A program made the translations under genes and the position numbers. Below the pieces are notes generated by a model, which saw nothing but the letters and a program-made list of their open reading frames with translations, ran no database searches and had not been told where the DNA came from. Below are positions 3,744-42,592 of a DNA stretch of 64,000 nt, one piece after another. This DNA comes from Enterobacteria phage Aplg8. Every line of letters begins with the position of its first letter. Position 1 is the stretch's first letter. The stretch is from sequence record NC_054902.1; one strand, written 5' to 3'.

Positions 3744-5445
<1,702 letters not shown>

Positions 5446-33131: not shown

Positions 33132-33160
33132 ACTATAACACAACACGAGGGACTTGTAAA
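33132..33160 (-). promoter_or_regulatory. sigma70-type early promoter (GTTTACA-N17-TATAGT), copy A of duplicated cassette
   Basis: minus-strand reading TTTACA agtccctcgtgttgtgt TATAGT, followed by a leader with GAGGA. Confidence 0.6.
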
Positions 33161-39016: not shown

Positions 39017-39282
39017 TGCTCATCCTTCAAAGTTTGGTTTACAGCTCTATTATAAATCAATTCATCATTAAGCTCAGGCAAAGACTTATGATATGTAGTT
39101 CTAACTTTATTTCCTTGCATCCAGTGCTTGACGTAAATGAAACCTTGCTCTACACATTTTTTAAAAATTCGTTCGTCTTTTTGAGCTCGGAATTCTGGAT
39201 TGCATCTAAAAAATTGATTTACGTGACCGTAATCACGTGTAGTATTACCTTCATTTTCATAAATAGTGTGAACGACAAACAT
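39013..39282 (-). CDS. hypothetical protein (T4 30.1 position)
   Basis: 89-aa ORF; ATGA overlap with gene 30. Confidence 0.65.
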   Translation of the reverse strand: MFVVHTIYENEGNTTRDYGHVNQFFRCNPEFRAQKDERIFKKCVEQGFIYVKHWMQGNKVRTTYHKSLPELNDELIYNRAVNQTLKDEQ

Positions 39283-40118
39283 TAGAATGCTCCTTGGAAA
39301 ATATTATCACCACCAGTAGGTCTATTATACAAATACTCTATGCCACCAGGTTTAATATAGTTCCATGTCTGAAAAGGATGCGTCTGATATGGATGATATA
39401 GATTATAAGGATTAAATCCAGGAGTTCTCCAGGTAGTGTTCCAAGGAAAAGAATCGTTTTTAATCATCTTCTCAATTACATCTTTTATAACTTTTTCACT
39501 ATCAAAACTTTCTTTATTTTCCTTCGATGGAAAAAGCTTATTCTCTACATCATTCCATGTATAAACTCGCTGTGCAGTTTTTGGAATACTGTCACGCTCC
39601 CCTCGAGCCATCCAATAAACAGGAACATTTAATATTTCACTCGCGTGATCGCAATGGTGAGCGAGATCGTCAATATAACAAATTACGTTATATTTCTCTT
39701 TTGCCTTTTTGAACAACTCTTCTTTTGAAGAATCATGACCACACATCAATACTTCTGAGAAGGCACCAGGAAAAAGAGCATTCAAATTAAATTGACGATT
39801 CAGCAGAGCGTCAATAGAATCACCCAATGCTGTAACAGCTACAAAATTATAATCTTCTTTTAATTTGTTAATTACACACAGAGCATCTTTATATGGAGAC
39901 AAGTAACGAATAAAATCCGAACGATTGTATTTTTCAATTAGCTTAACGCCAAGTTCTTCATCACAGTTAAAGAGTTTACCTGGAGAAATAAATTTTTCGT
40001 CCTGAATCATTTTTAAAATATGTTCTAATGGAAGATTATATTTTTGGGCAAAATAAGGAAGACCTGATTGCCAGCTTAAACATACACCATCAATATCAGT
40101 TAAAATAGTAGGCTTCAT
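39282..40118 (-). CDS. HAD-superfamily hydrolase-like protein (T4 30.2 position)
   Basis: 278-aa ORF; N-terminal ILTDIDGV matches HAD motif I (DxDG). Confidence 0.7.
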   Translation of the reverse strand: MKPTILTDIDGVCLSWQSGLPYFAQKYNLPLEHILKMIQDEKFISPGKLFNCDEELGVKLIEKYNRSDFIRYLSPYKDALCVINKLKEDYNFVAVTALGDSIDALLNRQFNLNALFPGAFSEVLMCGHDSSKEELFKKAKEKYNVICYIDDLAHHCDHASEILNVPVYWMARGERDSIPKTAQRVYTWNDVENKLFPSKENKESFDSEKVIKDVIEKMIKNDSFPWNTTWRTPGFNPYNLYHPYQTHPFQTWNYIKPGGIEYLYNRPTGGDNIFQGAF

Positions 40119-40579
40119 AGAGAGTCTCTTAATAGGTTTAACACATCAATAAATTCAGCTTCGGTTAATATTGTATCATCTTTTGTTAGACCACTAGCCA
40201 TGCTGTGCTTCAAAACTTTTCCTTTCGAGGCTTGTAATGCATCACGAAAGCCCCTGTTTTGGAACGCTGCTTCAAAATATGCATTTGTGTATAATTCTTT
40301 CCACGCTGGAGAGTATCTTGAAAACGGAACTCCGAGCCAGAAGAGGGTCCCACGGTCCTGAGCTCTAGCATAAGCTCGTCCAGCTTGTTGGGCAGCAAGC
40401 CCGGATAACCCAAATATACGACGTTGCTGTTCAACATTTTTCACCTTACACCCTTGGAGGAATCCTTCGAGACCTCCAAATTGGATACCATCCATAACAA
40501 AAGGCCATTGGGCGAAATTACTTAATGCGCATGATGGCCATTTAAAATTGCTTCTTATCTCTAGCTCAGACATTTTCAA
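40115..40579 (-). CDS. NADAR-domain (YbiA-like) protein (T4 30.3 position)
   Basis: 154-aa ORF; pattern WPSCALSNF...GIQFGGLEGFLQ...W...Y typical of NADAR/DUF1768 proteins. Confidence 0.65.
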   Translation of the reverse strand: MKMSELEIRSNFKWPSCALSNFAQWPFVMDGIQFGGLEGFLQGCKVKNVEQQRRIFGLSGLAAQQAGRAYARAQDRGTLFWLGVPFSRYSPAWKELYTNAYFEAAFQNRGFRDALQASKGKVLKHSMASGLTKDDTILTEAEFIDVLNLLRDSL

Positions 40580-40772
40580 TACTTATAATTTCAACATCAG
40601 CCCAATGACCATAGCAAGGAAGACGAAATTCAACTGGCCAGTTAGGGTCCTTTTCTAATATAATAGACTCAACTTTCGGTTCTTCATGTTCATCAGTATA
40701 TGGATTTTTATCTGTTACTTTATATGTGACCTTAATGTACTGAATTCCAAAAATCTTATTAATTATATTCAT
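40566..40772 (-). CDS. hypothetical protein
   Basis: 68-aa ORF in a tightly overlapping minus-strand array. Confidence 0.55.
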   Translation of the reverse strand: MNIINKIFGIQYIKVTYKVTDKNPYTDEHEEPKVESIILEKDPNWPVEFRLPCYGHWADVEIISIENV

Positions 40773-40966
40773 ACTAATTCCTTTAATCCGTAAATAGGAG
40801 ATAATTCATCGCCCATACGAAGGTCTTCATTTCCATCTACCCAGGAAACAATATAAGCCTCTTTTATTTGAATACCACTCCATTTAAATGGAGGTAGAAC
40901 CTTAGAAATTAATCCAGGTATACCAACTCCCTTTAATTCAACAGTTTGACCTAAAAAGAATTTCAT
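40769..40966 (-). CDS. hypothetical protein
   Basis: 65-aa ORF; ATGA overlap with the downstream gene. Confidence 0.55.
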   Translation of the reverse strand: MKFFLGQTVELKGVGIPGLISKVLPPFKWSGIQIKEAYIVSWVDGNEDLRMGDELSPIYGLKELV

Positions 40967-41253
40967 TAGAACCTCATCTGAAAACCGTGCGATTTAACAT
41001 TACCGCCGCCAATATCAGAAATGTTAATTTCACGCGCAATTGAAGGATCAATGTCAATTTCACGATTGAGTTTAGTGATAGCTAAAGTATCGCGCCCATT
41101 TACAGTACGGAACTCTAAAGGACATACTACATTAACGTAGTTTTTAATCGATTCACTGGTAGGTTGCAAATGAGCAGGAAGGTCTTTAGGCGCTTTAGAG
41201 AAAACCACTTCACAGAAATTTTTGCGGGTATCAAAATAAGTAGTCATAAACAT
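40966..41253 (-). CDS. hypothetical protein
   Basis: 95-aa ORF. Confidence 0.6.
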   Translation of the reverse strand: MFMTTYFDTRKNFCEVVFSKAPKDLPAHLQPTSESIKNYVNVVCPLEFRTVNGRDTLAITKLNREIDIDPSIAREINISDIGGGNVKSHGFQMRF

Positions 41254-41270
41254 AGTATTTTCCTCAGTAA

Positions 41271-41284
41271 GGGGCCGAAGCCCC
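41271..41284 (-). terminator. hairpin (RNA GGGGC-UUCG-GCCCC) downstream of the 121-aa ORF
   Basis: plus strand GGGGCCGAAGCCCC, identical to the element at 20236. Confidence 0.55.
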
Positions 41285-41294
41285 TCATTTTATT

Positions 41295-41660
41295 TTAAAT
41301 ATCAAATTCGTTAAGAACTACATCAAAGATTGCTTCAAGATGCTCAGGTTTAGCTCTGTTACTCAGAATATGACGAATCCAAGTTTTAACCAGAAGCTTG
41401 CGATTAACGCCATTCCAGCAAGGATGAGTCCCTAAATCGCGTTGACGAAAATCATCATCCAAAGCGATTTTGAAGTTGGAACCTTCCATTGTGATTGAAA
41501 CCGTGATGCCATTTTCAAATCGCATATAAACGTAGTTAGGAGTCATATACTGTTCAATTTCGCATACTGATCCATTTTGATGTTTCCAAAGGCAAATAGT
41601 ATCAATAGAACCTGCAATACCATTAGAAACATATTTACGTTCAAAGTTGATGTAGTTCAT
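41295..41660 (-). CDS. hypothetical protein
   Basis: 121-aa ORF; early promoter upstream. Confidence 0.65.
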   Translation of the reverse strand: MNYINFERKYVSNGIAGSIDTICLWKHQNGSVCEIEQYMTPNYVYMRFENGITVSITMEGSNFKIALDDDFRQRDLGTHPCWNGVNRKLLVKTWIRHILSNRAKPEHLEAIFDVVLNEFDI

Positions 41661-41687
41661 TTTTATTCTCCGAGATGTTTAATTGCG

Positions 41688-41726
41688 GTACAGGTATATA
41701 ATATCATATCCTGTACCAAAGTAAAC
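41688..41726 (-). promoter_or_regulatory. early promoter (GTTTAC-N17-TGaTATTAT) with -10 inside an 8-bp inverted repeat
   Basis: plus GGTACAGG tatataatatcatat CCTGTACC; minus-strand -35 GTTTAC at 41721-41726, extended -10 at 41698-41706. Confidence 0.55.
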
Positions 41727-41728
41727 AA

Positions 41729-42061
41729 TTATTTTACTACTTTCCAGTGCTGCATGTCAAGTTTACCAACTTTTTTCATCTTCTCAATTAAGCGTTCGGC
41801 ACGTTGGCGAGCTGTAACATAATACCATTCACCTAATTCATTTTGTTCAATTTTTCCAACGATTACTGTATTCAATTCATAAATCCAACCAGTAAAGAAA
41901 TTATGAACTTGAATTGTAAAGGTGAAATCTGTTCCCATACCTTCTGTTGTTTCTACTTCAATAATATTACCTTCAACTGCCATTAAGAACCACATAGTTT
42001 CATCATATTTACCATTGAAGCATTTAGTTTTAACTGCAGCGTTCAGATTAATCGTTTTCAT
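41729..42061 (-). CDS. hypothetical protein
   Basis: 110-aa ORF. Confidence 0.65.
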   Translation of the reverse strand: MKTINLNAAVKTKCFNGKYDETMWFLMAVEGNIIEVETTEGMGTDFTFTIQVHNFFTGWIYELNTVIVGKIEQNELGEWYYVTARQRAERLIEKMKKVGKLDMQHWKVVK

Positions 42062-42085
42062 TTTATTCTCCTTTGTTTGTGTAAG

Positions 42086-42118
42086 ATAATACTATCACAA
42101 AGGAACCATACTGTAAAC
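42086..42118 (-). promoter_or_regulatory. early promoter (GTTTAC-N18-TGaTAGTAT)
   Basis: minus-strand reading GTTTAC agtatggttcctttgtga TAGTAT upstream of the 110-aa ORF. Confidence 0.5.
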
Positions 42119-42145
42119 AACTTTGTGCAATCTTTGGAAAATAAA

Positions 42146-42166
42146 AAAGGACTCCCGAAGGAGTCC
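42146..42166 (-). terminator. intrinsic terminator GGACTCC-TTCG-GGAGTCC + U-tract (minus strand)
   Basis: plus strand AAAAAAGGACTCCCGAAGGAGTCC just past the stop of the basic 58-aa ORF. Confidence 0.7.
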
Positions 42167-42171
42167 TCAAC

Positions 42172-42348
42172 TTATGCTTTCTGCTTACCAAAACGAGAAG
42201 CATCATCTCGAAGAACCGCACGTGCTCGGCGCATGATCTTCTCAACAGTTTGATTGATACGAGAGTTCGACCCACGCTTGTAACCAGCGCGTTTAGAATC
42301 ACCAACTTTCTTTTCAACTGCTTTCTTTGCTTTAGCTTGTTTTGCCAT
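42172..42348 (-). CDS. small highly basic protein (Lys/Arg-rich)
   Basis: 58 aa from the internal ATG (MAKQAKAKKAVEKK...); the ORF-track start at 42390 is less likely. Confidence 0.55.
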   Translation of the reverse strand: MAKQAKAKKAVEKKVGDSKRAGYKRGSNSRINQTVEKIMRRARAVLRDDASRFGKQKA

Positions 42349-42592
42349 TATAAATTCTCTTTTAAATGAAAATGCAGGACTTATTGGCATTGCCTGCGAA
42401 AGCCCTCAAGGGGTACTTAGGTTTTGAATATTTAACGACCAGGATAACCATAAACCCGTCATCATTCACATTCAAGAGGTACACCGTAAAACTGCCGGGG
42501 TCTTAAAACTATAATGATTCGCAAATCATTAATCAGACAGTTCGACGGCTCCTCGATTTTAGCTCACACTAAGGCAGTGAATCTCCAATAAA

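Follow-up and report, generated by a model that had tools for sequence, protein, structure and literature searches.

Positions 40566-42348 of the window (the whole stretch of Enterobacteria phage Aplg8 DNA that was analysed, 64,000 nucleotides) hold six small ORFs, all on the minus strand, encoding proteins of 68, 65, 95, 121, 110 and 58 aa (30.4, 30.5, 30.6, 30.7, 30.8 and 30.9, respectively). The region is the T4 30.4-30.9 cluster of a Tequatrovirus, and its products are six unrelated, phage-restricted small proteins. The genes, together with the neighbouring cistron 30.3, are:

40115..40573, minus strand: gene 30.3 = adfN (anti-DarT factor NADAR), the next cistron; Pfam PF08010; 96.7% identical to T4
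40566..40772, minus strand: gene 30.4, 68 aa, acidic, two diverged allelic types (ORF map); dN/dS 0.11-0.33
40769..40772, minus strand: 30.5/30.4 junction, ATGA (ORF map, sequence)
40769..40966, minus strand: gene 30.5, 65 aa (ORF map); 65/65 residues equal to T4 gp30.5 (NP_049819)
40966, minus strand: 30.6/30.5 junction, TAATG, 1 nt overlap (ORF map, sequence)
40966..41253, minus strand: gene 30.6, 95 aa (ORF map, PHROG); dN/dS 0.05-0.12
41295..41660, minus strand: gene 30.7, 121 aa, Pfam PF06919, the most conserved of the six
41729..42061, minus strand: gene 30.8, 110 aa, Pfam PF06019 (ORF map, profile, T4 comparison)
42172..42348, minus strand: gene 30.9, 58 aa, 6.5 kDa, very basic (ORF map, T4 comparison)

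The initial annotation had listed six small ORFs without any motif that it recognised. The ORFs are real, but they are named genes that correspond one-to-one with T4 30.4-30.9, and two of them belong to Pfam families (PF06919 with 176 bits against a cut-off of 27, PF06019 with 196 bits against 25, in the profile search). Protein identities to T4 amount to 97.1% for 30.4, 100% for 30.5, 97.9% for 30.6, 98.3% for 30.7, 98.2% for 30.8 and 100% for 30.9, and PHROGs 2042, 1690, 2153, 1582, 1507 and 1427 give full-length matches for the six proteins (E 1e-31 to 1e-65). The gene order, which runs on one strand from rIII/gene 31 through the cluster to 30.3-30.2-30.1-DNA ligase, matches the annotation of RB51 and T4. 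T4 (NC_000866, 128758-130540) shares with Aplg8 the gene order and strand, the overlaps, the promoters, the terminator and the hairpins. Few substitutions separate the two clusters, and the hairpin at 41270-41285 has the loop UUCG in Aplg8 against UUCA in T4. At the DNA level the closest overall match is phage ECP2301 (98.7%) rather than T4 itself. The locus is already known, and the observation of it is correct; what is new in the present analysis is the extension of the comparison to newer genera, and nothing else.

Junctions, promoters and terminators

The array had also been described as one of overlapping ORFs. This applies to two of the five internal junctions (30.6/30.5 and 30.5/30.4), whereas the other three have gaps of 110 nt (30.9|30.8), 68 nt (30.8|30.7) and 41 nt (30.7|30.6). 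Beyond the cluster, the end of 30.4 and the start of 30.3 have 8 nt in common. The regulatory features found between and within these junctions are:

42137..42168, minus strand: intrinsic terminator after 30.9, GAGGACUCC-UUCG-GGAGUCCUU plus U-run (scan, fold)
42089..42118, minus strand: candidate early promoter (PE) upstream of 30.8, GTTTAC, 18-nt spacer with TG, TAGTAT (pattern scan)
42068..42071, minus strand: GGAG in the 30.8 Shine-Dalgarno sequence AAGGAGAAUAAAAUG, putative RegB site (sequence)
41698..41726, minus strand: candidate PE upstream of 30.7, GTTTAC, 17-nt spacer, TATTAT (pattern scan)
41687..41717, minus strand: perfect 8-bp inverted repeat GGTACAGG...CCTGTACC over the spacer and -10 of PE(30.7) (sequence, fold)
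41668..41671, minus strand: GGAG in the 30.7 Shine-Dalgarno sequence CGGAGAAUAAAAAUG (sequence)
41270..41285, minus strand: intercistronic tetraloop hairpin GGGGC-UUCG-GCCCC, abutting the 30.6 Shine-Dalgarno sequence (scan, fold z = -3.6)

The GTTTAC promoters proposed at 41688 and 42086 were recovered on the minus strand, at 41698-41726 and 42089-42118. Judged by their sequence, both qualify as T4 sigma-70 early promoters lying upstream of early genes. The pattern GTTTAC-N16-18-TANNNT occurs nine times in the 64-kb window, in all cases on the minus strand, where 2.27 +/- 1.43 are expected and 0/100 shuffles reach nine; the pattern is approximately 4-fold enriched over shuffles, and on the early strand only. 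PE(30.7) is kept in 9/9 phages compared, and the PE(30.8) pattern in seven of the nine (absent in IME08 and YenP8). The inverted repeat over PE(30.7) is present in T4, IME08, p000v and YenP8, and the segment 41661-41730 folds at -20.1 kcal/mol (z = -5.9). This repeat is predicted to form a stable hairpin only in read-through RNA coming from PE(30.8). For 30.9 the phage comparison identified no promoter, with the CGTTAAATA block at 42429-42437 as a candidate, and no mapped middle promoter has been reported inside the 30.4-30.9 cluster.

Two hairpins had been noted as terminators, and they differ. The one at 42146 is indeed the canonical intrinsic terminator of 30.9 (42147-42168, CUUCGG loop plus U-run), with a 9-bp stem, a UUCG loop and a U6AU4 tail (-15.9 kcal/mol, z = -2.9). 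It is found in 8/8 other phages compared, with compensatory changes in the stem, and the record of phage GiZh annotates it as an early terminator. In the one at 41271, UUACUGAGGAAAA comes after the stem on the coding strand, and a T-run lies beside the hairpin on the plus strand only. Because the coding strand offers no U-run and the hairpin directly adjoins the Shine-Dalgarno sequence of 30.6, this element is an intercistronic stem-loop and not a terminator for these genes. A hairpin ahead of the Shine-Dalgarno sequence occupies the same place, with other stems and loops, in IME08, Potts1, NM4.3, a Karamvirus phage, YenP8 and T4.

Two Rfam matches were discarded, Atu_C8 over the terminator and mir-126 over the promoter hairpin; neither reaches the gathering score, and simple hairpins explain both. 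For the leader of 30.9, a conserved RNA structure is not supported: RNAalifold gives only invariant or weak pairs, and the single-sequence folds disagree in structure and are not stabler than shuffles (z -1.1 to +0.8).

Since a terminator is found only after 30.9, and the hairpin at 41270-41285 has no U-run on the coding strand, the array resolves into two transcription units. Unit 1 is (rIII-)30.9|terminator and unit 2 is PE-30.8-PE-30.7-hairpin-30.6-30.5-30.4-30.3-30.2-... The earlier description of individual promoters and terminators for the ORFs was therefore overstated: there are two GTTTAC promoters, one true terminator and two units, not six. Sequence and conservation then indicate the following course of transcription. 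Gene 30.9 would close the upstream rIII unit at the strong intrinsic terminator, and two tandem sigma-70 GTTTAC early promoters right after it would drive 30.8 and 30.7. Read-through past the stable intercistronic hairpin would then supply the translationally coupled 30.6-30.5-30.4, followed by 30.3 (adfN) and 30.2. For this locus, a study of 2006 (Virology 344:378, cited in PMC9409239) is reported to describe a pair of early promoters, one rho-independent terminator, a stem-loop that is conserved, and Shine-Dalgarno sequences with RegB sites. The sequence analysis recovers each of these elements, and they are conserved across genera.

As far as the sequence goes, both GGAG motifs agree with the definition of a RegB target, in which GGAG is part of the Shine-Dalgarno region of an early mRNA, with the 30.8 site being putative. 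For 30.7 the mRNA is a known RegB substrate, with a site mapped experimentally in T4 according to PMC9409239, which cites Truncaite et al. 2006; ribosomal protein S1 stimulates cleavage by RegB. The context GGAGAAUAAAAUG of the 30.8 GGAG is kept in most other genera, and the layout, including the GGAG Shine-Dalgarno sites of 30.8 and 30.7, is kept across seven genera. Cleavage by RegB at both sites would confine the translation of 30.8 and 30.7 to a brief burst within minutes of the onset of infection.

Selection, expression and dispensability

Given that the ORFs are short (58-121 aa), show no motif that can be recognised and carry the label 'hypothetical' in almost all records, it might be argued that some of them are not genes but frames left open by chance in regulatory DNA that is AT-rich. 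We practically dismiss this explanation. All six show purifying selection across genera, with dN/dS of 0.03-0.46, similar to rIII and gp31. Also, their Shine-Dalgarno sequences are correctly spaced, each ORF has a PHROG or Pfam family, and the opposite strand has only shorter ORFs, of 81 aa or less. Data for T4 place 30.4-30.8 in the class 'early-RNA/early-Protein' and show the RNA of 30.9 to be early; the proteins of 30.4-30.8 are detected during infection, and for these five genes the chance-ORF reading is already refuted.

The genes are real but dispensable. HIDEN-SEQ data show that 95-100% of the TA sites per gene tolerate insertions and that all six are non-essential on E. coli K-12. Natural variation points in the same direction: phage LZ is without 30.8 and 30.5, natural deletion chimeras fuse gp30.7 or gp30.8 to AdfN (gp30.7::AdfN, gp30.8::AdfN), and the ORFs occur in 52-73% of the phage records that carry gene 31, with roughly 700-1000 records each for 30.8, 30.6 and 30.4. 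The initial annotation had called the region hyperplastic, but fast evolution is not shared by all its genes. For 30.7 and 30.6, dN/dS is 0.03-0.12, which indicates high conservation. Gene 30.8 (dN/dS 0.16-0.35) exists as two deeply diverged allelic types, the one of Tequatrovirus being approximately 38% identical to the one of the other genera.

Homology searches and the basic protein gp30.9

No enzyme or domain signature was found for the cluster proteins in Pfam, NCBIfam, PADLOC or PHROGs, and PDB searches with single sequences and family profiles gave chance-level matches only. The fold search proposed as a check in the initial annotation returned no fold relative for the proteins tested, and BFVD gave their own homologues only. 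For the proteins tested there was no homologue outside phages, and complete E. coli genomes contain no cellular or prophage copy. The six proteins show no paralogy among each other (hhalign probability at most 5%). The predicted fold of gp30.7 is a 7-stranded beta-sheet with two C-terminal helices, in a model of moderate quality. The AF2 model of gp30.8 is poor (pLDDT 63) and stayed so because the combined six-family profile search deepened only 30.9 and 30.7.

As had been noted, the 58-aa product of 30.9 is Lys/Arg-rich: it contains 33% Lys+Arg, with a pI of 11.4 and a net charge of +14. An invariant SKRxGYKR..N.RI motif is followed by a strongly amphipathic helix (muH up to 0.77). The start codon was set by comparison, given an in-frame stop 4-5 codons upstream in four phages. 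Among 1.84e9 representative proteins, gp30.9 is found in only four clusters, all of close relatives. Given its charge and helix, the most probable ligand of gp30.9 is a polyanion, be it RNA, the ribosome or DNA.

A more specific proposal is that gp30.9 acts on RNA or DNA by coating or remodelling it, or else attaches to the ribosome, possibly in concert with RIII. Apart from the composition and the invariant SKRxGYKR, the genetic context speaks in favour of this: in the enterobacterial T4-like phages compared, 30.9 always lies directly after rIII and before the terminator, and RIII, with which it is co-transcribed, binds ribosomal protein S1 and modulates RegB (PMC9409239). The gene is present in 72% of T4-like records and reaches as far as a Pseudomonas phage. 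Nonetheless, neither the single sequence nor the family profile matches a nucleic-acid-binding or ribosomal family or structure in Pfam, NCBIfam or PDB (the best PDB match is SlmA, E = 0.27). The idea of nucleic-acid binding comes from composition only, and basic amphipathic peptides also target membranes and acidic proteins. In addition, the protein is unclassified in the T4 proteome and the gene is among those non-essential in HIDEN-SEQ. We therefore treat the proposal as tentative and, on balance, somewhat doubtful.

The promoter-less spacer between rIII and 30.9 contains the blocks CGTTAAATA and GT(A/T)CCCYTYGAGGGCTTKCG, which do not vary among the enterobacterial T4-like genera compared and lie just upstream of the 30.9 Shine-Dalgarno sequence, itself possibly sequestered; one invariant block occupies 42397-42416. 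One could imagine gp30.9 as an autoregulated RNA binder with this spacer as its operator, which together with RIII on the S1/RegB axis times the decay of early mRNA, but we regard this as very improbable.

Host interaction and anti-defence

Two genes at the locus have a characterised product. T4 gp30.5 co-purifies with Ppk, the polyphosphate kinase of E. coli, and is an activator of bNACHT11, an NLR-like defence protein (preprint). T2 gp6 and T2 gp57, likewise small early proteins that bind host kinases, also activate bNACHT11. AdfN (T4 gp30.3) is an anti-DarTG1 enzyme that reverses the ADP-ribosylation of DNA by DarT1 (PMC11257639; its function is also seen in HIDEN-SEQ). It shares the early operon, is coupled to 30.4 by the 8-nt overlap and is dispensable on K-12. 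However, the enzyme AdfN has relatives in cells and a fold that can be recognised, whereas the six cluster proteins are without either, where tested. The five remaining orphans (30.4, 30.6, 30.7, 30.8 and 30.9) resemble gp30.5 in size class, early timing, dispensability and absence of homologues, but their sequences are unrelated to it.

The initial annotation had viewed the region as a place for host-takeover and anti-defence genes. The general part of this view holds up: it is a plastic, non-essential early region of T-even phages, in which gp30.5 binds Ppk and the neighbour 30.3 encodes AdfN. The anti-defence part fares less well, given that gp30.5 is known as a trigger of bNACHT11 rather than as an anti-defence protein and that none of the six was a hit in transposon screens against the defence systems tested. 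By analogy with this one characterised member and one neighbour, we infer that the products are accessory host-interaction factors and not enzymes, probably small proteins, each with a host target, protein or nucleic acid, to which it binds. They would bring no benefit on laboratory E. coli K-12, yet be kept by selection in nature. We assign a probability of roughly three in four to the joint reading, in which the identity of the T4 cluster and its early regulation follow from sequence and conservation and the host-interaction function is added by analogy.

It can be asked whether at least one of the five orphans is a dedicated anti-defence factor against a system absent from K-12 and from the tested panels. 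Some observations are in line with this: adfN is the next cistron, all five are non-essential on K-12 and patchily distributed (52-73% of T4-like records), 30.8 and 30.4 each have two deeply diverged alleles, as expected under diversifying host pressure, and in other genera the interval between 30.8 and 30.7 carries variable ORF insertions, the mark of an accessory-gene hotspot. The screens argue in the other direction. Transposon screens of T4 and Bas37 gave no phenotype for any of the five, with RexAB, RnlAB, CBASS, DarTG1/2, Mokosh, minimal medium and several clinical isolates covered, and HIDEN-SEQ gave no hits for them against RexAB, RnlAB, CBASS, DarTG1, DarTG2, Mokosh or clinical isolates. 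Also, the dN/dS values of 30.7 and 30.6 are not arms-race-like, and 30.5, the sole characterised member, triggers defence and does not block it. Dedicated anti-defence is consequently rather unlikely in our view, and a set of accessory host-interaction factors is the reading we prefer. The CRISPRi-ART preprint and its supplement contain nothing on 30.4-30.9.

The locus belongs to the textbook 'dark matter' of T4: the names of its genes go back to the annotation of the T4 genome, and their transcription has been dissected. Even so, five orphans that are expressed early in the best-studied phage (with protein detected for four), are under selection and are conserved across genera stand without a function, and their two nearest characterised neighbours are a counter-defence enzyme and a protein that binds a host kinase and is sensed by an immune protein of the NLR-like type. 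The five are reasonable candidates for partner-finding screens, while existing knowledge is unchanged by the Aplg8 window.

A separate observation concerns the strong conservation of 30.7 and 30.6. This is odd for arms-race genes, and could mean that these two have a role in phage physiology rather than in host manipulation.

Identity and layout of the cluster

The genome is of the Tequatrovirus (T4) type, and the six minus-strand ORFs correspond one to one with T4 genes 30.4-30.9, with protein identities of 97-100%. The flanking ORFs, rIII and co-chaperonin gp31, are each 100% identical to T4, and 783 phage records match the 2.3 kb around the cluster (top identity 98.7%). The feature seen in the initial annotation is thus real, its ORF sizes and coordinates are correct and the neighbourhood was guessed rightly. 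It is certainly the already named, transcriptionally characterised T4 30.4-30.9 cluster.

Genes and spacer (percentages: share of 1394 phage records carrying gene 31; dN/dS: against orthologues from other phages)
39282-40118, minus strand: gene 30.2, 278 aa, starting with a DxDGV motif of the kind usual in HAD-family phosphatases
40115-40573, minus strand: gene 30.3 (adfN), translationally coupled to 30.4 via an 8-nt overlap
40566-40772, minus strand: gene 30.4, 68 aa, 52%, dN/dS 0.11-0.33
40769-40966, minus strand: gene 30.5, 65 aa, 61%, dN/dS 0.13-0.26
40966-41253, minus strand: gene 30.6, 95 aa, 55%, dN/dS 0.05-0.12
41295-41660, minus strand: gene 30.7, 121 aa, 71%, dN/dS 0.03-0.09
41729-42061, minus strand: gene 30.8, 110 aa, 73%, dN/dS 0.16-0.35
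42172-42348, minus strand: gene 30.9, 58 aa, 72%, dN/dS 0.21-0.46
42172-42390 (4372-4590 in compared locus L001): span of inconsistent 30.9 start annotation, comparative stop codons backing the 58-aa form only
42349-42592, minus strand: rIII-30.9 spacer, 244 nt

The six ORFs are genes. Their dN/dS values lie well under 1, much like those of rIII and of gp31, which is essential. Time-resolved transcriptomics and proteomics of T4 place 30.4-30.8 in the 'early-RNA/early-Protein' class; for 30.9 the RNA is early and the protein has no classification. Annotated lengths of 30.9 vary (T4 has 58 aa, RB51 72 aa, UniProt 97 aa under '11.1 kDa protein', other records 68-92 aa). Four phages carry an in-frame stop 4-5 codons 5' of the MAKQ/MAKK ATG, so the conserved form is the 58-aa protein, and the 72-aa and 97-aa annotations are unsupported.

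Each ORF has a PHROGs family, all labelled 'unknown function', and Pfam families exist for 30.7 (PF06919) and 30.8 (PF06019). Several GenBank records carry plainly wrong names that stem from annotation transfer: for example, gp30.9 appears as '1,4-alpha-glucan branching enzyme', gp30.6 as 'valyl-tRNA synthetase modifier', and gp30.7 as 'head vertex protein' or 'putative baseplate hub subunit'.

Promoters, hairpins and RegB sites

The ORFs had been described as overlapping, with individual promoters and terminators. Overlap holds for 30.6/30.5 (TAATG) and 30.5/30.4 (ATGA); gaps of 110, 68 and 41 nt separate the other pairs. Both proposed GTTTAC promoters are real matches, and one of the two proposed terminators stands:

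42089-42118, minus strand: early promoter 5' of 30.8
41698-41726, minus strand: early promoter 5' of 30.7
42147-42168, minus strand: canonical terminator after 30.9 (CUUCGG loop, U-run)
41270-41285, minus strand: intercistronic stem-loop

The last hairpin is stable (z = -3.6) and lies directly 5' of the 30.6 Shine-Dalgarno, but lacks a coding-strand U-run and is not a terminator for the minus-strand genes. With two early promoters, one terminator, one non-terminating hairpin and few overlaps, the array therefore forms a pair of transcription units and not six separate ones, and 'individual' was an overstatement. On the plus strand only, the 30.7/30.6 hairpin is followed by a T-run (41270-41294). 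The phage GiZh annotation lists this hairpin as a plus-strand terminator, and it could block antisense transcription arriving from the opposite direction.

Exact matches to GTTTAC-N16-18-TANNNT number nine in the window, where 2.3 would be expected, and every one is on the minus strand; none of 100 shuffles reached nine. The other seven lie at 33132, 45106, 48412, 57520, 58512, 61813 and 62341; those at 33132 and 48412 are near-identical over 30 nt. Mapped T4 middle promoters include none within the cluster, P30.2 and P31 being closest.

For comparison the region was extracted from T4, RB51, LZ and GiZh, and from IME08 (Dhakavirus), p000v (Mosigvirus), PEi20 (Kanagawavirus), Potts1 (Marfavirus), NM4.3 (Moonvirus), VIPECLOM01 (Karamvirus) and the Yersinia phage YenP8. 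Regulatory elements were scanned in nine phages: T4, the phage of this window and the seven from IME08 through YenP8, which are more distant. The terminator after 30.9, with compensatory stem changes, and the promoter 5' of 30.7 are kept in all nine, and the promoter 5' of 30.8 in seven. The GGAGAAUAAAAUG Shine-Dalgarno context is retained in most. The tetraloop hairpin before the next Shine-Dalgarno is conserved with varying stems and loops (UUCG, UACG, GAAA; UUCA in T4). A perfect 8-bp inverted repeat encloses the 30.7 promoter; its fold is strong (z = -5.9) only in RNA that reads through from the promoter 5' of 30.8.

The endoribonuclease RegB targets GGAG within early Shine-Dalgarno sequences. 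T4 30.7 mRNA is a known RegB substrate (PMC9409239, citing Truncaite et al.), and from its sequence 30.8 would be cleaved likewise. Most likely, two strong promoters would start immediate-early transcription, 30.6-30.5-30.4-30.3 would be translated in a coupled manner, and RegB would rapidly inactivate the ribosome-binding sites of 30.8 and 30.7. Of this, the layout is observed in the sequence, and published T4 work documents the timing and cleavage at 30.7. Regulation as an early pulse is well supported.

The rIII-30.9 spacer has no GTTTAC early promoter in enterobacterial phages, whereas a Pseudomonas phage carries a canonical one at this position instead. Within the enterobacterial spacer, all T4-like genera compared share unchanged sequence blocks, at 42429-42437 and 42397-42416 (minus strand): CGTTAAATA, late-promoter-like at 6/8 positions, and GT(A/T)CCCYTYGAGGGCTTKCG. 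A stem of lineage-specific sequence lies 3' of them. RNA structure is unsupported as an explanation of the conservation, the folds being no stabler than shuffles.

Dispensable and variable genes

By HIDEN-SEQ in T4, 95-100% of the TA sites within every one of the six genes accept a transposon, and all six are classed non-essential on K-12. The reported conditional hits include none of them for RexAB, RnlAB, CBASS, DarTG1/2, minimal medium, Mokosh, Septu, Druantia III or clinical isolates. In phage LZ, a natural variant, 30.8 and 30.5 are missing and 30.4 is split. Among database proteins P0011, P0023 and P0024, two are natural in-frame deletion chimeras that lost the intervening genes, gp30.7(1-78)::AdfN-C and gp30.8(1-36)::AdfN-C, presumably with adfN inactivated; the other joins an SH3_3-like domain to the gp30.8 C-terminal helix.

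Other genera carry different small ORFs 3' of 30.7, and one or two extra unannotated ORFs (~160 aa) between 30.8 and 30.7 (L006 5137-6108; L007 4403-5419; L008 4386-4874; L009 3711-3932), which makes this junction an insertion hotspot. Comparing the window with L005, L011 and L013, we found two deeply diverged alleles each of 30.8 (41729-42061) and 30.4 (40566-40772), with 38-53% identity between Tequatrovirus and Mosigvirus or Dhakavirus, whereas 30.7 and 30.6 are near-invariant (81-94%) in the same phages. This mosaic pattern suggests allele replacement via recombination. Outside Straboviridae, gp30.7 has homologues of ~31% identity and the same predicted fold in rV5-like phages, namely Klebsiella phage KaOmega (Vequintavirinae; L010 4001-4372) and, as a BFVD match, Erwinia phage Cronus; hence this family has moved among large myoviruses that are unrelated to one another. 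Complete E. coli genomes hold no copies of the cluster ORFs.

Functions of the products

For the orphans 30.4, 30.6, 30.7, 30.8 and 30.9, the literature search yielded no function, and no informative relatives were found: there was no NCBIfam or PADLOC match, no Pfam match beyond self-named families, and no PDB match with single sequences or family profiles. The six families are mutually unrelated. The suggested structure prediction and fold search gave for gp30.8 an unreliable model (pLDDT 63) matching its own homologues only. In the NM4.3 deposit, the homologues of 30.9 and 30.5 carry the remark 'No HHsearch hits'.

The last ORF is indeed Lys/Arg-rich: gp30.9 (6.5 kDa, pI 11.4) has 33% Lys+Arg and a net charge of +14. 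A search of 1.84 billion representative proteins yielded just four clusters for it. Its basicity, invariant SKRxGYKR..N.RI motif and amphipathic helix make polyanion binding plausible but unproven; that it specifically binds nucleic acid or the ribosome we regard as doubtful.

Published experiments on protein function cover one cluster gene, 30.5, and one neighbour, 30.3. Here gp30.5 is identical to its T4 counterpart. The T4 protein lowers colony numbers if expressed together with bNACHT11, an NLR-related defence protein; deleting gene 30.5 contributes to bNACHT11 escape, and gp30.5 reciprocally co-immunoprecipitates with E. coli polyphosphate kinase. AdfN is a NADAR DNA ADP-ribosylglycohydrolase, necessary and sufficient to overcome DarTG1, against which T-even phages deploy it (PMC11257639); HIDEN-SEQ confirms this. 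The proposed host-takeover and anti-defence character thus holds as anti-defence for adjacent 30.3 only and as host interaction for 30.5 only. That one or more of the orphans serve in anti-defence seems unlikely, somewhat more so than nucleic-acid or ribosome binding by gp30.9. Neither excludes the other or our preferred account, to which we give a probability of about 75%: the T4 30.4-30.9 genes, expressed as an early pulse, would encode small host-factor binders.

The Pfam entry for gene 30.3 still reads merely 'Phage_30_3'. For 30.2, the NM4.3 depositor recorded an HHsearch match to haloacid-dehalogenase-like hydrolases, and PHROG similarity to polynucleotide kinase is weak.
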